From a virus (lineage: Duplodnaviria; Caudoviricetes), in the IMG/VR virus record IMGVR_UViG_3300021431_004083, positions 1 to 64,000 of that record: a stretch of 64,000 nt of DNA; one strand, given 5' to 3'. Position numbers and translations under genes: made by a program. Under the pieces are notes generated by a model. That model saw only the letters and a list, made by a program, of their open reading frames with translations. It ran no database searches and was not told where the DNA came from. Shown here piece after piece: positions 1 through 28,130 of the stretch (positions are counted from its first letter, which is position 1; the number at the start of each line of letters is the position of its first letter).

Positions 1-78
1 CAAAGAACGACCCGATCTGGCAATTTGCTGAATAGTAACATCAGCACTTACAAAAAGAAAAAAAATTATCACACGAAT

Positions 79-307
79 TTCAGTCAATCATATAGTTAAA
101 GTACGGTATAAAATAATCTCTGCTAAACAGTACCGTCAAATATCGGTACTCGCAAAGTGCAGAGAGCTCGTGGATAGTTGCGCAAGTCTGATACTGAACA
201 ATACTGTCAAACACCAGCGCTCACAAACTTCAGTCAATCATATAGTAAAAATGCAACACAAAACAATCTCTGCTAAATAGTATCGCCAAATGTCCGCACT
301 CATAAAG
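79..307. repeat. Imperfect direct repeat, two 79-bp units 150 bp apart (79-157 and 229-307), upstream of cas12a
   Basis: Both units begin TTCAGTCAATCATATAGT and contain AATCTCTGCTAAA; about 16 of 79 positions differ, mostly transitions (hand alignment). Confidence 0.9.
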
Positions 308-374
308 AAAACGCAAAGCGGAGCAAAGCAGAGTGTAAATGGTTAGGTATCAAAAAATAAAAAGGAGACAAAAA

Positions 375-3300
375 ATGTCAAACAAAACAAGCTCCATTAC
401 AACAACAAACAAGTTATCGTATACAGGTTTTCACAACAACGGAAAACAAAGCAAGACCTTGATGTTTGAATTAAAGCCTATCGGCCGAACCACCGAACAT
501 CTGGACAGAAAAGGTTATCTCGCCGATGACATCGACAGAGCCGAGAGCTACAAAACCTTCAAGGAAATCGCGGATAATTTCCACAAGAACCTCATCGAAG
601 AAAGCTTAGCGACCTTCACTTTCAGCGATACGTTGAAGGACTATTTCGACTTATGGCTTAGTCCTGTCCGCACAAACGAAGACACGCCGAAGCTCAGAAA
701 AATGGAAGCAAAGCTTCGAAAAGAATTATCCTCAGCGCTCAAGCAGCACCCGTCATTTGCTGCGACAAGCTCCGGTAAAAGGCTGATTGACGAAGCCTTA
801 TATCCCAACGCAAGTGATAAGGAACGTCAGTGTCTTGACCGCTTCAAAGGCAGAAGCTCATACCTTGACAGCTACACAGAGGTTCGTTCATTCATTTATA
901 CCGACCTCTGTAAGCACAACACGATTGCTTATCGTGTTGTCAATGAGAATCTCAAGATTTATCTTGAAAACATCCTCGCTTACGAAAAGCTCATGCAGAC
1001 AGCCGTAAACGGCAAACTCGAAACCGTAAAAGAAATGTTCCATGATTTGTATCCCACTTTTTCAATGGACATTTCCATCTTCTTTACAAGCTACGGCTTT
1101 GACTATTGTCTTTCCCAGAATGCCATCACACGATATAATATTCTGCTCGGCGGTTGGTCTGACGATAACGGTATCCACCACAAAGGTCTGAATAATTATA
1201 TCAACGAATATAACCAGACCGTTCCCAGAAACAAGCGTCTGCCGAAGCTCAACAAACTTCAGAAGATGATTCTGAGTGAAGAAAACTCCATGTCGTTCAT
1301 CATCGATAAGTTCGAAAACGACGTAGACCTTGCCAACGCCATCCGCTATTGGCTCAAGAACTGTCAATTTGATGCTCTCAACCTACTCATCTGGACACTC
1401 GATGTCCATTACAATCTCGATGAGATTCACTTCAAAAACGACAATCAGGGCAAGAACATCAGCGACCTGTCTCAGGCACTCTTCAAGAACCACCATGTAA
1501 TCCGTGACGCATGGGACTACGACTACGACATCGTAAACGCAAAAGCAAAATCCCGTCAAAAGCCGGAGCGTTACGCGGAAAAGAGAGACAAGGCGTTCAA
1601 GAAAATCAACAGCTTCTCTCTGTCGTATCTCGCGAACATTCTGTCGCAATACGACAATCAATACGCGAATTTCGTTGCGCAATTCAAGACACGAATCAGT
1701 GTGCATATCCAAAACGTACAGCAAATGATTGCTGATAAAACGCTTGACATGAGACTCGACCCGCTGATGCTTCTAAAATCCATCAGCAGCGACACGAAAC
1801 TTGTCGAAGACATCAAACGCGTACTCGACAGCCTCAAAGATATGCAGCGCATGCTCACACCTCTCCTCGGAGAAGGAACTGAGCCTAACAGAGATGCTAT
1901 GTTCTACTCTGATTTCGAACCGCTGATGAACTATGTCGACACACTGACGCCTTTATACAACAAAGTCCGCAATTATATCACAAAGAAACCGTACTCCACC
2001 AAAAAGACGTCTCTGTATTTCGGCGCGTCGAACTTCGGCTCAGGCTTTGACGTAACAAAGCTCCCTGTATCCCACACAATCATCATGAGGGATAAAGGAT
2101 GTTACTATCTTGCTGTTATCGACAACAACAAGCTGATTGATAAGCTCTACGACCACAACGATAATGACGGATACGAATATATGGTATACAAACAGATTCC
2201 GTCCCCCATCAAGTATTTCAGCCTGAAGAACATTCTGCCGCAAGACCCGCCGGATGATATCCGTCAGCTTCTCGAAGACAGAAAGAACGGGGCCAAATGG
2301 TCACATGACGATGAGACACGGTTCATTGACTACATCGTCAACGAATTCCTGCCCACCTATCCGCCTATTCACGACAAGAACGGTAATCCTTACTTCTCAT
2401 GGAAATTCAAGAACCCCGACGAATACGAATCTCTCAACGAGTTCTTCGACGACGTATCCAAACAGGCGTATCAGACATCGTTCCGTTTCGTCTCTCGTGA
2501 CTTCGTGGACGACGCCGTTGAAAACGGAGATATCTTTTTCTTCCAAATCTACAATCAGGATTTCTCGCCCGCAAGCCACGGCAAGCCTTCTCCGCACACA
2601 TTATGGTTCAGAGCGTTATTCTCCGACGTCAATCTGGAGACAAAGGATATTCGCCTCAAAGGCAACGCCACAGCGTACTTCCGTCCGGCAAGCATCTTCT
2701 ACACAGATGAAAAGTGGAGAAAAGGACATCATTACGAGCAACTCAAAAACAAGTTCAAGTTCCCTATCATCAAAGACAAAAGATATGCTCTCGACAAGTT
2801 CTTCTTCCATATCACCCTTGAAATCAACTGCAACGCAACTGTTGAAAAGTATTTCAACAACAGGGTGAACGAAGAAATCCGCAAAGCTGATAGATACAAC
2901 ATCCTTGCTATCAACAGAGGAGAGAGAAATCTCTTATACGCTGTTGTCATGGACCAGGATGGTACCATTCTCGAACAGAAATCGTTCAATATCATCAAAT
3001 CGGAGCTTCCCAACAAAACCGTCAAAGAAACAGACTATTGGAAAAAGCTCCATGCACGCGAGAAAGAGCGTGACACGGCTCGTAAAAGCTGGAAGTCTAT
3101 TGAGTGTATCAAAGACCTCAAGAAAGGATACTTATCCTACGTAGTCAAAACCATCACTGACATGATGTTTGAATACAACGCCGTGCTCGTTATGGAAAAT
3201 CTCGACATCGAGATGAAGCGCAGCCGACAGAAGATTGAAAAGAACGTTTACGCACAGTTCCAGAACGCAATCATCCAAAAGCTATCCATGTATGTCAACA

Positions 3301-4127
3301 AGGACATCGACCTGCACATCGCTCGTACCGCCCCCGGCGGCACGCTCAATCCGTACCAGTTAACGTATATCCCCGCAAGTCGTACCAAGACACCGAAACA
3401 AAACGGCTTTGTATTCTTCCTCAATCCGTGGAACATCACGGAAATCGACCCGACAACAGGCTTTGTCGACTTGTTCCAGACCTGTTTCAGAACGAAAAAC
3501 GAATATAAGGATTTCTTCGCGAAGTTCAAGGATATCCGCTACAACGAAGCACAGGGTTGGTTCGAGTTCGACACAGACTACACCTATTTCCGTGATAAGG
3601 AAAAAGCCGGTAAGAGAACCAGATGGAACATCTGCTCATACGGAACACGTCTGCGTCGTTTCCGTAATCCCGACAAGAACTACGCGGAAGACGCGATGAC
3701 AGTCTATCCGACACAGATGCTCAAAGACCTGTTCGACGAGTACAACATTCCTTACGCACCCGCCTCGGCAAAAAGTACCTCAATCAGTATCAAAGATGAC
3801 ATCATCCAAATCGACAAGCTTGATTTCTACAAGAAGCTGTTGTATATCTTAAAACTGATTGTCCAATTGCGAAACACGTCTCCTTCGTCCACTGAACAGG
3901 AAGACGATTATATCATCTCCCCTGTTATCAACGAAGATACGAACTGGTTCTATGACAGCCGTGACTACAATGAAGAAAGCCTTCTTCCCTGCAATACAGA
4001 CGCGAACGGCGCTTACAGCCTCGCTCTGAAATGCAACATGGTCATTGACCGTATCAAAAACACAATCCCCGGAGAACCCGTGGATATGTATATTTCCAAC
4101 GCAGACTGGCTTGACGCTCGACAATAA
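375..4127 (+). CDS. cas12a: Cas12a (Cpf1)-family protein, predicted DNase-dead (RuvC-I D->N)
   Basis: Cas12a motifs along the whole length: SKTLMFELKPIGRT, LYNKVRNYITKKPYS, FQIYNQDFS, IIKDKRY..DKFFFH, VMENL, IDPTTGF, QLRN, DANGAY. RuvC-I reads AINRGERNL instead of GIDRGERNL. RBS AAGGAG at 362-367 favours ATG 375 over 339. Confidence 0.95.
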   Translation: MSNKTSSITTTNKLSYTGFHNNGKQSKTLMFELKPIGRTTEHLDRKGYLADDIDRAESYKTFKEIADNFHKNLIEESLATFTFSDTLKDYFDLWLSPVRTNEDTPKLRKMEAKLRKELSSALKQHPSFAATSSGKRLIDEALYPNASDKERQCLDRFKGRSSYLDSYTEVRSFIYTDLCKHNTIAYRVVNENLKIYLENILAYEKLMQTAVNGKLETVKEMFHDLYPTFSMDISIFFTSYGFDYCLSQNAITRYNILLGGWSDDNGIHHKGLNNYINEYNQTVPRNKRLPKLNKLQKMILSEENSMSFIIDKFENDVDLANAIRYWLKNCQFDALNLLIWTLDVHYNLDEIHFKNDNQGKNISDLSQALFKNHHVIRDAWDYDYDIVNAKAKSRQKPERYAEKRDKAFKKINSFSLSYLANILSQYDNQYANFVAQFKTRISVHIQNVQQMIADKTLDMRLDPLMLLKSISSDTKLVEDIKRVLDSLKDMQRMLTPLLGEGTEPNRDAMFYSDFEPLMNYVDTLTPLYNKVRNYITKKPYSTKKTSLYFGASNFGSGFDVTKLPVSHTIIMRDKGCYYLAVIDNNKLIDKLYDHNDNDGYEYMVYKQIPSPIKYFSLKNILPQDPPDDIRQLLEDRKNGAKWSHDDETRFIDYIVNEFLPTYPPIHDKNGNPYFSWKFKNPDEYESLNEFFDDVSKQAYQTSFRFVSRDFVDDAVENGDIFFFQIYNQDFSPASHGKPSPHTLWFRALFSDVNLETKDIRLKGNATAYFRPASIFYTDEKWRKGHHYEQLKNKFKFPIIKDKRYALDKFFFHITLEINCNATVEKYFNNRVNEEIRKADRYNILAINRGERNLLYAVVMDQDGTILEQKSFNIIKSELPNKTVKETDYWKKLHAREKERDTARKSWKSIECIKDLKKGYLSYVVKTITDMMFEYNAVLVMENLDIEMKRSRQKIEKNVYAQFQNAIIQKLSMYVNKDIDLHIARTAPGGTLNPYQLTYIPASRTKTPKQNGFVFFLNPWNITEIDPTTGFVDLFQTCFRTKNEYKDFFAKFKDIRYNEAQGWFEFDTDYTYFRDKEKAGKRTRWNICSYGTRLRRFRNPDKNYAEDAMTVYPTQMLKDLFDEYNIPYAPASAKSTSISIKDDIIQIDKLDFYKKLLYILKLIVQLRNTSPSSTEQEDDYIISPVINEDTNWFYDSRDYNEESLLPCNTDANGAYSLALKCNMVIDRIKNTIPGEPVDMYISNADWLDARQ

Positions 4128-4248: not shown

Positions 4249-6345
4249 ATGTTACCCGACCTTTCAGCAAATGATATGCTGTTTATCAGAAAAAAGAAAA
4301 AAGGACCCGGAGATTGGGCTCGAATGGACCGTTTGTTAGACTACCTATTCACCAAACCAAAAAGGACAATGACAAAGCCCAACAACAGGTGCTTGCTTTT
4401 ATCTGTAAAGCTCGCGAAAATCATAAAAAGAGAACAGCAATTTTGTTGTCTGATGGCATTGTGTGAATATATGATAACGGACGCTTTCACCGATGGAAAA
4501 TTCATCACGAAAGAATACAAAGAAATCATAAAGCAGTTCCAAAATGACCACGCGAACTATGAAATAACACAAAAGGCAATCATACAGCGCTTCCAAGGTA
4601 TGAGAAACCATCTTCTCGAAAAATGGATAAAACTCATACGAATACTTAAACGTATCGAAAAGGAAGAAATGACAGAAGAATGGGAATATATCATCTCATA
4701 CCCGATACGAAGCACAAAAGCACATCTTGAAAAATTAGCCGATACGTTTCCTGTTCTTTTGATGGCTACGCCGCTGTATCTCATCCAAAAAGACATTCTG
4801 ACGCTTGATTTCTGTGACGACCTTCTAAACGCGACATCCCATCGCAACTGGGAGAATCTGAACGACAATGAAAAAAACTGCTTGACAAAAACAATACGTT
4901 CGCTGTATCAAAACACCGATTATGGCAACAACACCGACGTTCTCAAAAGCGAATCGGAAAAACAATACAGAATCATCTTCAATATGGAAAAGAGGAAACA
5001 GGAAGCACTGCAAAAAGAAAAGGCTGACTTTCTTGAAACCGTAAGAAAAGAAGATGAATACAACCGCCAATGTGCGGTCAAGACCATAAAGAGAGTAAAA
5101 GCGCTTCTCGACAAAGAGGAATCGAGCGTAAAACAAAGCCTGCAAATAGATGATGAAACGAAAGAATACATTATAAAAAACGATATCGAGAATATCTATA
5201 TATTGCTATTCGCTCAATTCAACACTGATACGCTTATCGTAAATTCTGTTGCGAAATATTATCCTCGAAGCAAAAAGGAAGTCCTGAGAAAATATTTCCC
5301 GATCAGCGTAAAACAGGCAAAAATCTTTTACTCAAAAGAGGAAGCACGACGTCATATTCAGGAAATACGGAACTGGGAATCAAGGCGTGATTACAAGATG
5401 TTCAGAATCATTACGATAGATACAATGTTTTTGCTCGCAGCAATGCAAAAGAGACATGACGAAAATAAACGCATGTTGGCAACCGTCTCCAATGCAAAAC
5501 AGATACCCATCTACATACCGTCGCCGATTCGCTATGACATAACAGGTCGCGTGCTGATACAAAACGAACATCTGAACAACGACATCACACAATCATGCAT
5601 TGCGTTGTCCGATTTGCTGAGCTTTTGTCCGACCAAACCGCGTCTCGTTGATATACGCCCTGTCTACACAACAGAAACCGTAAGACGAGACAAAAGCTTG
5701 AATACATATCAAATCCGAGATTATCTCCACAAAGACCAATACCTCTGTCGACTCCAAGAAGGTATATGGCATGTTGTTACATACAAACAAGCAATTTCAG
5801 ACGAAGTTGTACTCATCCAACTCGTTTCCGCCGACACACTGACCGAAACAAAATGGAACAGTTATTCTTACCATAACTCCATGCTCAAAATCGGAATAGT
5901 TGAAACAACAATGACCGACGAAAACTTCGTATATCATTACCATAGAGCGATAGACACGTCCGACAATTGGAGTTTATACATATGGTCAAACAGCATTGAC
6001 ACAGAGAACCCGAAAATCAATGCCATAGAATTGCGTTTAACGACACATCTGAAAGAAAAAACGTCCAGAAAAGATGAGTGCGAAGACGCAAAGAACGGGC
6101 TCACGAAAGCAAAGCTGTTGACGTATTATGATGATGATACCATACGCGAATATCAATGTCTCATAGATGAAGAAACCCAAAAGGTTCACAAAATAAGCAA
6201 AAAACAACAATGTATCTATGAAGGCTATGAGAAAAGCCATGATATCAAAAAAGAAATCATCATACTAAACGGAAAAGACTGTTATGTGGTCGCAAAGCGA
6301 CCTGAAACGCAGGAAAAATACTATTTTCCGGCTCAAAACACCTAA
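4249..6345 (+). CDS. Hypothetical protein, 698 aa
   Basis: Long ORF with RBS-like GAAAGGTG, followed by a hairpin at about 6354-6383; no recognised motif. Confidence 0.75.
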   Translation: MLPDLSANDMLFIRKKKKGPGDWARMDRLLDYLFTKPKRTMTKPNNRCLLLSVKLAKIIKREQQFCCLMALCEYMITDAFTDGKFITKEYKEIIKQFQNDHANYEITQKAIIQRFQGMRNHLLEKWIKLIRILKRIEKEEMTEEWEYIISYPIRSTKAHLEKLADTFPVLLMATPLYLIQKDILTLDFCDDLLNATSHRNWENLNDNEKNCLTKTIRSLYQNTDYGNNTDVLKSESEKQYRIIFNMEKRKQEALQKEKADFLETVRKEDEYNRQCAVKTIKRVKALLDKEESSVKQSLQIDDETKEYIIKNDIENIYILLFAQFNTDTLIVNSVAKYYPRSKKEVLRKYFPISVKQAKIFYSKEEARRHIQEIRNWESRRDYKMFRIITIDTMFLLAAMQKRHDENKRMLATVSNAKQIPIYIPSPIRYDITGRVLIQNEHLNNDITQSCIALSDLLSFCPTKPRLVDIRPVYTTETVRRDKSLNTYQIRDYLHKDQYLCRLQEGIWHVVTYKQAISDEVVLIQLVSADTLTETKWNSYSYHNSMLKIGIVETTMTDENFVYHYHRAIDTSDNWSLYIWSNSIDTENPKINAIELRLTTHLKEKTSRKDECEDAKNGLTKAKLLTYYDDDTIREYQCLIDEETQKVHKISKKQQCIYEGYEKSHDIKKEIIILNGKDCYVVAKRPETQEKYYFPAQNT

Positions 6346-10076: not shown

Positions 10077-10820
10077 ATGTTGTCCTACAAAGGCTTTTAC
10101 GGAAGCGTAAGTGAAATATGCAAAACGTTCTATAAAGACTATAAGACCGTTATGCATCTCGCTGAAACACGACCGATAGAAAAAGCCATTGAACAAACAA
10201 AATCAAACACACCGGTAACATGCAAACAAAAACAAATCGACAATATCGCACCTTTACCTAATTTCTTAAGATTAGACGAAGAGGATAGAACTTACGCGAT
10301 AACCAATATCGATATCATCGAAAACTTCATCCAAGAAAGACATATCAACGATGAAGATATGCAACAAAATCTATATGTTCAATATCTATATGCCGTAACA
10401 AAAACAAACGCATATATGAAACGATATTATAGACGACTGTTGATAAAACAAAGGCTGAGACAAACCTACATTATACTTTTCAGAAAACAATATATATGTA
10501 AGCGAAATACTGTTCTCGTTAACGCCAAAACAATATTGCGCGAGAAACAAGAACAAAACGTACACGATATTGAAAAACAAATTACTGAAAAAGTAAGGCG
10601 CGAAACAATAAAACACGCAGTTTCCCTATTGACGCCGAGAAAACAAAGAGTCATAAATGCTTACTATGGCTTAAACGAAAACAAACCCAAAACATTCAAC
10701 CAAATAGGAAAAGAACTCCATGTTACACTACAGCGCGCAAAATACATACATGATGAGGCGTTAAGGGATTTACGTTCTCCAAGAATACTACATGAACTAA
10801 AATTAAGGGAACTCCTTTAA
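10077..10820 (+). CDS. Sigma70 region-4 (HTH) domain protein
   Basis: C-terminal LTPRKQRVINAYYGL...KTFNQIGKELHVTLQRAKYIHDEALRDLRSP matches the RpoD-type region 4 pattern. Confidence 0.7.
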   Translation: MLSYKGFYGSVSEICKTFYKDYKTVMHLAETRPIEKAIEQTKSNTPVTCKQKQIDNIAPLPNFLRLDEEDRTYAITNIDIIENFIQERHINDEDMQQNLYVQYLYAVTKTNAYMKRYYRRLLIKQRLRQTYIILFRKQYICKRNTVLVNAKTILREKQEQNVHDIEKQITEKVRRETIKHAVSLLTPRKQRVINAYYGLNENKPKTFNQIGKELHVTLQRAKYIHDEALRDLRSPRILHELKLRELL

Positions 10821-12759: not shown

Positions 12760-12829
12760 CACACAGCCTATAATACAAAATATCACAAAATAATCTCTGC
12801 TTCGGCAGAAAAAAGGAGAACGATTACTT

Positions 12830-28057: not shown

Positions 28058-28130
28058 AAATCTCTGCTATAGCAGAGTCCCAAAAACACCCAAAAAAAAA
28101 ATCCTTGCTAAAAAAGAAAGAAGGCAGAGT

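Follow-up and report, generated by a model that had tools for sequence, protein, structure and literature searches.

The DNA analysed here, a stretch of 64,000 nucleotides that we call the window, covers positions 1 to 64,000 of the IMG/VR virus record IMGVR_UViG_3300021431_004083 and carries near its start a complete cas12a gene, the product of which has asparagine in place of the first catalytic aspartate of the RuvC nuclease site. We observed that this Asn is fixed among close relatives, that the gene is under purifying selection, and that the whole element lacks both adaptation genes and a CRISPR array. A hairpin motif with a strong strand bias and an anatomy like that of a CRISPR RNA (crRNA) handle was found in 5' leaders of the same element, including that of cas12a itself. 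We consider the chances about even that the protein is a DNase-dead, otherwise complete Cas12a kept as an RNA-binding or RNA-guided regulator, with these diverged handles as its partners. A private pair would be the simplest account using all of the observations: the Cas12a would be DNase-dead, and the handle would have diverged along with it and spread over the leaders. In the literature that we searched, no natural dead full-length Cas12a was found described.

The protein contains the Pfam domains REC1, REC2, PI, RuvC_1 and NUC. It scored 916.7 bits with the NCBI equivalog model TIGR04330 (cas_Cpf1; cut-off, 300) and aligned end to end with Cas12a proteins of the Protein Data Bank, best with ReChb (2e-223) and LbCas12a (1e-178). 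Its length and domain order are those of the canonical FnCas12a, LbCas12a and AsCas12a, and its nearest natural relatives are P0003 and P0005. Because a GGAG is present at 364-367 and all relatives have 1250 aa, the ATG at 375 is the likely start. The RuvC-I segment contains ...ILAINRGERNLLY... with the motif AINRGER, while IDRGER was found in 108 of the 112 aligned Cas12a. The Asp-Glu-Asp triad is thus incomplete, with Asn at the first Asp and with the Glu and the second Asp present. An earlier note on this DNA had claimed a full-length Cas12a with AAC at the RuvC-I Asp, retention of the other two catalytic residues and drift nearby (ENLDIEMKR, ITEIDP); the ORF, the domains and the alignment bear this out. 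Substitution of the RuvC-I Asp abolishes DNA cleavage in the Cas12a proteins studied so far, and the window protein is predicted to be unable to cut DNA.

The counterpart of the pre-crRNA RNase region in WED-III was also investigated. Residues G796, H797, H798, K803, K805 and K812 are invariant between the window Cas12a and its array-bearing sister clade, with which it has both this segment and a compact PI motif in common. The RNase residues of FnCas12a are H843, K852 and K869 (bioRxiv 10.1101/122648); in the window protein, the alignment does not single out a catalytic His. We rejected a loss of the LKL motif, which reads the protospacer-adjacent motif (PAM), as specific to the window protein (P0001), since the active sisters P0003 and P0005 have the same compact motif. 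The compact motif is therefore uninformative on loss of DNA binding.

At 90% identity, the window Cas12a falls in a cluster of 37 members, 12 of which are full-length and come from independent samples, on contigs of up to 288 kb. All 12 carry Asn at RuvC-I and differ from the window protein at 0 to 94 residues (up to 7.5%). The Asn is therefore neither a read error nor a private mutation, and Asp in relatives, which the earlier note had named along with a read error as a refutation of its reading, was not what we observed. The same note had proposed to check whether close homologs share the change under purifying selection, and they do. Omega (the ratio of nonsynonymous to synonymous change, by the Nei-Gojobori method) was 0.05-0.06 overall against three relatives, at synonymous divergence (dS) of up to 0.62 (L029, the 7.5%-diverged relative: 0.06 at dS 0.62), and 0.10 between L029 and L031. 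In the two deepest comparisons, omega per domain was 0.01-0.11, with REC1, REC2, PI, RuvC and Nuc included, and it was 0.01 in the RuvC-III segment; no domain with more than a handful of substitutions exceeded about 0.2. Of the 227 columns with at least 90% conservation among 112 Cas12a, 48 were off consensus in the window Cas12a, the highest count of all (median, 5), and its branch of 1.11 substitutions per site is sister to a clade of ordinary Cas12a (support, 0.98). A burst of change followed by the strong constraint seen today would fit a new function and not decay.

Six-frame profile searches of the whole 251,549-bp record detected no cas1, cas2 or cas4; the record holds no second Cas12a, and a repeat-spacer scan of it revealed no CRISPR array (36-nt repeats separated by acquired spacers). 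The sole periodic match, with an 87-nt period, was rejected as an array, being a protein repeat inside a 385-aa ORF at L023:14692-15849 (record 247692-248849); its about nine 29-residue HEAT/PBS-like repeats could be called an array by a naive scan. Two canonical TCTAC...GTAGA sites in the window lie inside ORFs and were judged to be chance or unclear. Neither the array nor the cas4/cas1/cas2 genes of a functional type V-A locus are thus present, and this sets the protein apart from canonical Cas12a together with its RuvC-I Asn and its 48 deviating positions. The absence of cas1/2/4 and of a canonical array, claimed at first for the window, holds across the record, the remainder of which had also been proposed for an array search. 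The term "orphan" used for the protein is right as regards adaptation genes and array; it is not right as regards RNA, for which candidate partners exist in the handle-like leaders and the four tandem units upstream. Since the Asn is shared, purifying selection is evident, and adaptation genes and a canonical array are lacking, the earlier idea that the protein was repurposed is well founded, as against decay. The roles that the earlier note had offered (RNA-guided repressor, RNA-processing or RNA-binding factor, decoy for host crRNAs) left the handle-like leaders out of account.

The ORF-free stretch 5' of cas12a consists of four tandem units of ~150 nt, which span the record junction. Each unit has motif A (TTCAGTCAATCATATA, with a -10-like box in it), then, 20-36 nt on, AATCTCTGCT, and then a hairpin; the leaders would be transcribed from these putative motif-A promoters. 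Genome-wide, the 9-mer family A(A/T)TCTCT(A/G)C occurs at 34 sites, with 28 on the + strand compared to 4.8 expected, and a closing stem of 5-6 bp is present at at least 22 of the 34. The variant consensus is AAU-C-UCU(G/A)C-loop-G(C/U)AGA-G with a loop of 4-49 nt, so the outer arms CUCUGC/GCAGAG bracket loops of widely differing size. A perfect stem of at least 6 bp (CUCUGC/GCAGAG or CUCUAC/GUAGAG) was observed in 12 of the 18 promoter-linked leaders, around loops of 4, 16, 18, 28, 35, 42 and 49 nt; in two leaders it is CUCUAC/GUAGAG, which equals the canonical Cas12a stem. Seven copies, including those at window 12792 and 28059, show the exact 19-nt layout with a 4-nt loop. In the complete unit that precedes the cas12a leader, the nested hairpin has a predicted fold of -19.7 kcal/mol (z -5.8). 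No Rfam family matched the leader region. An ORF at window 10077-10820 matched sigma-70 region 4 only; its product could be an element-specific sigma factor or activator that reads the motif-A promoters.

The 19-nt handle of Cas12a has three 5' bases (AAU), five Watson-Crick pairs (stem UCUAC/GUAGA), a loop that starts with U, a closing U.U pair and a reverse-Hoogsteen A-U pair, the AAU and the loop U being pseudoknot features (PMC6507119). The consensus of the element handles follows the 19-nt layout of AAUUUCUACUnnnGUAGAU, with a loop that can expand. The copies keep the AAU and the 5-bp stem, which is UCUAC or UCUGC (an A-U to G-C swap in some), and the first loop base is U in most copies and A in one short copy. 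In contrast to canonical handles, 12 of 13 of which have U.U in our sample, the copies with a perfect closing stem have C-G at that place. Moreover, most copies carry long loop insertions, of up to 49 nt in total loop length, and they lie in mRNA leaders and not in an array. A covariance model trained on 13 canonical handles, none of them from the element, detected handles at L029:3049 (21.7 bits, E 0.011), at L029:2300 (21.0 bits), and at genome positions 235859 (19.8 bits) and 242381 (19.2 bits). In the 64-kb window, its best match was the handle at 28059..28077 (match start 28054), with 15.1 bits. By chance, AAT-N-TCTAC-N4-GTAGA, with 13 fixed bases, is estimated to occur about 0.01 times in 0.5 Mb.

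Table 1. Positions of the cas12a gene, its leaders and related loci (window coordinates unless a record or locus is named; RBS, ribosome-binding site)
Feature	Location (strand)	Details
cas12a coding sequence	375..4127 (+)	1250 aa; within an open frame at 339-4127 (+)
WED-III segment	2724..2774 (+)	GHHYEQLKNKFKFPIIK; counterpart of the pre-crRNA RNase region
RuvC-I catalytic position	2913..2915 (+)	AAC, Asp position -> Asn; N859 from ATG 339, N847 in the 1250-aa form
RuvC-II Glu, kept	3195..3197 (+)	E953 (from ATG 339); MENLDIEMKR
RuvC-III Asp, kept	3999..4001 (+)	D1221 (from ATG 339); NTDANGAY
Partial promoter-handle unit	1..75 (+)	3' part of the preceding unit, which starts at the end of the circular record
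Leader unit	76..225 (+)	motif A (TTCAGTCAATCATATA, with a -10-like box) 79-94; handle 115-164, AAU-CUCUGC-[inner hairpin GUACCG/CGGUAC]-GCAGAG; then a degenerate second hairpin copy
Leader of cas12a	226..374 (+)	motif A 229-244; handle-like element 265-333; RBS 364-367
19-nt handle	12792..12810 (+)	AAU-C-UCUGC-UUCG-GCAGA-A; then directly AAAAGGAGA and ATG 12830
19-nt handle	28059..28077 (+)	AAU-C-UCUGC-UAUA-GCAGA-G; between two ORFs
698-aa gene	4249..6345 (+)	directly downstream of cas12a; always at the same place in relatives (696-698 aa)
MobL-family relaxase	record 65560-67626 (-), L032	E 2e-53
His-variant locus	L003:984-5956	cas12a, then canonical array; no cas4/1/2 between
His-variant locus	L004:1017-4987	cas12a, then canonical array; no cas4/1/2 between
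Solitary canonical handle	L004:974-992	AATTTCTACCGCTGTAGAT; immediately 5' of RBS and start codon of the His-variant cas12a
Asn-variant locus (P0058)	L005:10001-15800 (also L006)	Cas12a from elsewhere in the tree, with cas4 and several mini-arrays

The placement of the handles suggests how such a pair might act. A ribosome-binding site (RBS) directly follows the handle at 12792, 135480, 142163 and 230730, and lies inside the handle loop at 178384 and 235864; in L029, the cas12a leader is made of promoter, handle, AAAAGGAGAC and ATG. We put it at somewhat below even odds that Cas12a handles have spread as cis-elements to about twenty 5' leaders, through which the dead Cas12a regulates its own replicon and itself. 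At least 22 genes of the element have a variant handle in their leaders, and further ones occur in the four ORF-free tandem units and in the leader of cas12a. Cas12a would recognise the handle in the leader RNA, the retained WED RNase site would probably cut 5' of it, and the protein would hold the following ~20 nt. Since these often contain the RBS, binding would set the stability or translation of handle-tagged mRNAs, including that of cas12a. Alternatively, each leader might serve as a guide that returns Cas12a to DNA as a roadblock, with a self-guide on its own gene. The handle-tagged genes would in this way form a regulon, within which cas12a would regulate itself. TldR proteins, which are derived from TnpB, are RuvC-dead RNA-guided repressors with an omega-RNA scaffold and hard-wired guides against promoter targets. 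The concept would be the same for the window Cas12a, but here the RNA element is inside mRNA leaders, and no target was found.

Several observations weigh against a regulator that works through these handles. RNA binding alone would leave the selection on the PI and Nuc domains unexplained. The four matches of the canonical-handle model in 52 kb (19-22 bits, E 0.011-0.048) are each individually modest, and pair covariation in the family with a 28-nt loop was no better than in shuffles. What supports the stem is the conservation of its sequence and the variation in loop size; compensatory changes do not add to this. Post-handle sequences had no second match in the element, either at 13 nt or more or as 9-12-nt seeds beside TTTV; no target for a guide function was found. 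In some predicted folds the UCUCU of the handle pairs with GGAGA of the RBS, and the motif might itself function as a promoter-proximal or translation-initiation element. Finally, a search of IMG/VR by protein and two leader motifs returned chance matches only, and no cas12a-less relative of the element was found. The alternative UCUCU/GGAGA pairing was predicted at window 262-377 and at L029:9940-10003, with z-scores that were not significant; such pairing could toggle the leader between a folded handle and an occluded RBS.

The main rival explanation is an anti-CRISPR decoy, which we regard as unlikely, although none of the points against it is decisive. Here, the dead Cas12a would capture crRNAs of host type V-A systems or shield protospacers, and the handle RNAs would be repeat mimics of the Racr or Cracr type. 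Such mimics are proven against V-A systems, as RacrVA1-3 (PMC10651486) and as CracrVA1 from a Ruminococcus phage (bioRxiv 10.1101/2024.10.29.618823). Like CreR, through which hosts autoregulate, they are solitary handles with their own promoter and a short spacer-like stretch behind; Cas12a processes them, and they are located 5' of cas12a or on mobile elements. Those systems, however, work with an active host Cas12a, one or a few copies and a canonical handle, whereas the element has at least 22 variant handles, many of them fused to coding mRNAs, beside its own dead Cas12a. A decoy would agree with the proposal that a phage dCas9 is a crRNA sponge (PMC11656645) and with the finding that viral cas homologues work as anti-CRISPRs (bioRxiv 10.1101/2023.06.24.545427). 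This RuvC-inactivated phage Cas9 is likewise a class 2 effector with a dead nuclease, carried by a mobile element that lacks an adaptation module, but it belongs to another effector family and its tracrRNA matches the host, while the motif of the element differs from canonical repeats. The decoy would also suit the many small unknown genes around cas12a, the constraint on the whole protein (PI and REC included, as for protospacer shielding) and the frequency of V-A loci in gut bacteria of the Clostridia type. On the other hand, the Eubacteriales metagenome-assembled genome (MAG) with a 97% copy of the element has no second Cas12a, although this MAG may be incomplete or mis-binned. The C-G closing pair of the handles, at a place where 12 of 13 canonical ones have U.U, and the departure of the protein from many family-conserved positions suggest a private protein-RNA pair over mimicry of a host system. 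Moreover, if one element made both a decoy RNA and a decoy protein, the two would titrate each other.

It appears improbable to us that the protein interferes with rival mobile elements by binding alone, with guides from host arrays or from the ORF-free units. Such interference has precedents in nuclease-dead type V effectors that silence competitors from plasmids (PMC11656645), with Cas12m (PMC11013384) and Cas12c (bioRxiv 10.1101/2021.12.06.471469) as examples; Cas12m is enriched on large plasmids (PMC11656645). Cas12m (V-M, a plasmid-borne silencer), Cas12c and Cas12k (of CRISPR-associated transposons, CAST) resemble the window protein in that RuvC is dead or unused and RNA-guided binding is kept on a mobile element. 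They form separate subtypes of smaller size, however, each served by an array or tracrRNA of its own, whereas the window protein is a bona fide Cas12a with no array. Selection on all DNA-recognition domains would suit interference, as would the real arrays of other RuvC-I-substituted Cas12a (at least 18 repeats in L003; mini-arrays and Cas4 in L005). Yet the element has neither a spacer array nor adaptation genes, and the sequences after the handles are partly alike across units, unlike acquired spacers. Moreover, close relatives differ in how many ORF-free units precede cas12a (four in the window element, three in L002, one in L029), and these units therefore behave as duplicated promoter-leader modules and not as a record of spacers.

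Equally small, in our estimate, is the probability that the leader motif is unrelated to Cas12a, being a promoter, initial-transcribed or anti-Shine-Dalgarno element, while Cas12a has another role or no dedicated RNA. In every case the motif is preceded by a -10-like box or an A-rich stretch, and often it borders directly on the RBS; this, the UCUCU/GGAGA pairing, the lack of significant covariation and the lack of an Rfam family would all suit this idea. Against it, the independent canonical-handle model finds element handles despite the minute chance expectation, and the exact 19-nt geometry occurs, clustered at cas12a, in a replicon that keeps an orphan Cas12a. Least probable is that Cas12a is still a nuclease (Asn being tolerated, or the substrate another one) or a decaying remnant: the kept Glu and second Asp and the low omega of RuvC-III would suit the former, but the loss of cleavage on substitution of this Asp argues against it, and decay is ruled out because the 1250-codon frame is intact in 12 variants at an omega of about 0.06.

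Nuclease-dead type V proteins have been known as separate small subtypes (Cas12k, Cas12m, Cas12c, TldR); here, the most widely used type V enzyme is concerned. Should the window protein prove to bind the leaders, CRISPR repeats would here serve naturally as cis-regulatory mRNA tags, and a private protein-handle pair orthogonal to canonical Cas12a would bear on the exaptation of CRISPR parts. A ready-made orthogonal dCas12a would also become available, together with a handle that tolerates large loop insertions.

We further investigated other Cas12a with changes at RuvC-I. The sister clade of the window Cas12a holds P0003, in a cas12a-cas4-cas1-cas2-array locus (L007), and P0005, in a cas12a-cas2-array locus with cas4 shrunk to a short ORF (L008); the canonical repeat of both loci ends AATTTCTACTGTTGTAGAT. 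Two nested members of this clade, P0008 and P0010, carry His (SIHRGER) in place of the RuvC-I Asp. Their genes lead directly into canonical arrays, of at least 18 repeats in L003, and the proteins of L003 and L004 are candidates for a binding-only Cas12a with real spacers. The solitary handle in L004 looks like an autoregulatory leader; it is similar to the published CreR, but it is fused to the mRNA. The carrier of P0058 is a 56-kb element with a plasmid-partition ATPase (ALP_N) and an integrase, and some repeats beside this gene in L005 have the stem variant TCTGC...GCAGA, as in the leaders of the window element. P0081 combines Asn at RuvC-I with Glu at the RuvC-III Asp (NVEANGAY). Across a tree of 113 sampled Cas12a, the RuvC-I residue was lost at least four times independently. 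Together with the fixed and selected dead state, this makes loss of cutting look like a recurrent evolutionary route of Cas12a on mobile DNA. No Cas12a-like match was detected in GenBank phages, and among the plasmids searched, only two distant Butyrivibrio cas12a genes matched. A tRNA-Leu gene lies upstream in L003.

The carrier of the window gene is a single contig of 251,549 bp, the 89-bp ends of which repeat each other (window 1-89, record 251461-251549), and its IMG/VR entry is that of a complete virus with terminal repeats. Since the repeat sits inside the tandem 152-nt leader units, it may instead reflect overlapping assembly ends of a circular molecule; the count of four units is possibly misassembled. 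Profiles for Terminase_6N and the HK97 capsid had no match in the element, in tests that were not exhaustive, and among 29 large ORFs there was no structural PHROG match save weak tail-fibre-like stretches. Because a MobL relaxase is present and no capsid or terminase was found, the carrier appears closer to a large plasmid than to a phage. The element also encodes CHAP hydrolases, a 2276-aa SpaA/Cna_B adhesin, a primase, RecJ and a helicase. It had been called a conjugative element in the earlier note, which is supported in part at most: the relaxase, the CHAP hydrolases and the Cna_B/SpaA adhesins are present, but the VirD4, VirB4 and TraG-D_C profiles (PF02534, PF12696, PF12846) had no match, although intron-split genes could escape them. 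The host of this large extrachromosomal element is taken to be a gut bacterium of the Clostridia type, and a 97% copy of the element is binned in the Eubacteriales MAG.

The 698-aa protein encoded next to cas12a had no Atlas or Pfam match. A conserved partnership between cas12a and a neighbour of ~700 aa was considered and rejected, as the neighbour of another Asn-variant Cas12a is non-homologous. At window 61020-63974, in an ORF that runs on to 64553, we observed a ClpB-like double AAA+ protein split by a LAGLIDADG/Hom_end segment, which is probably an intein. A second ClpB-like gene is present at record 156571-158466.

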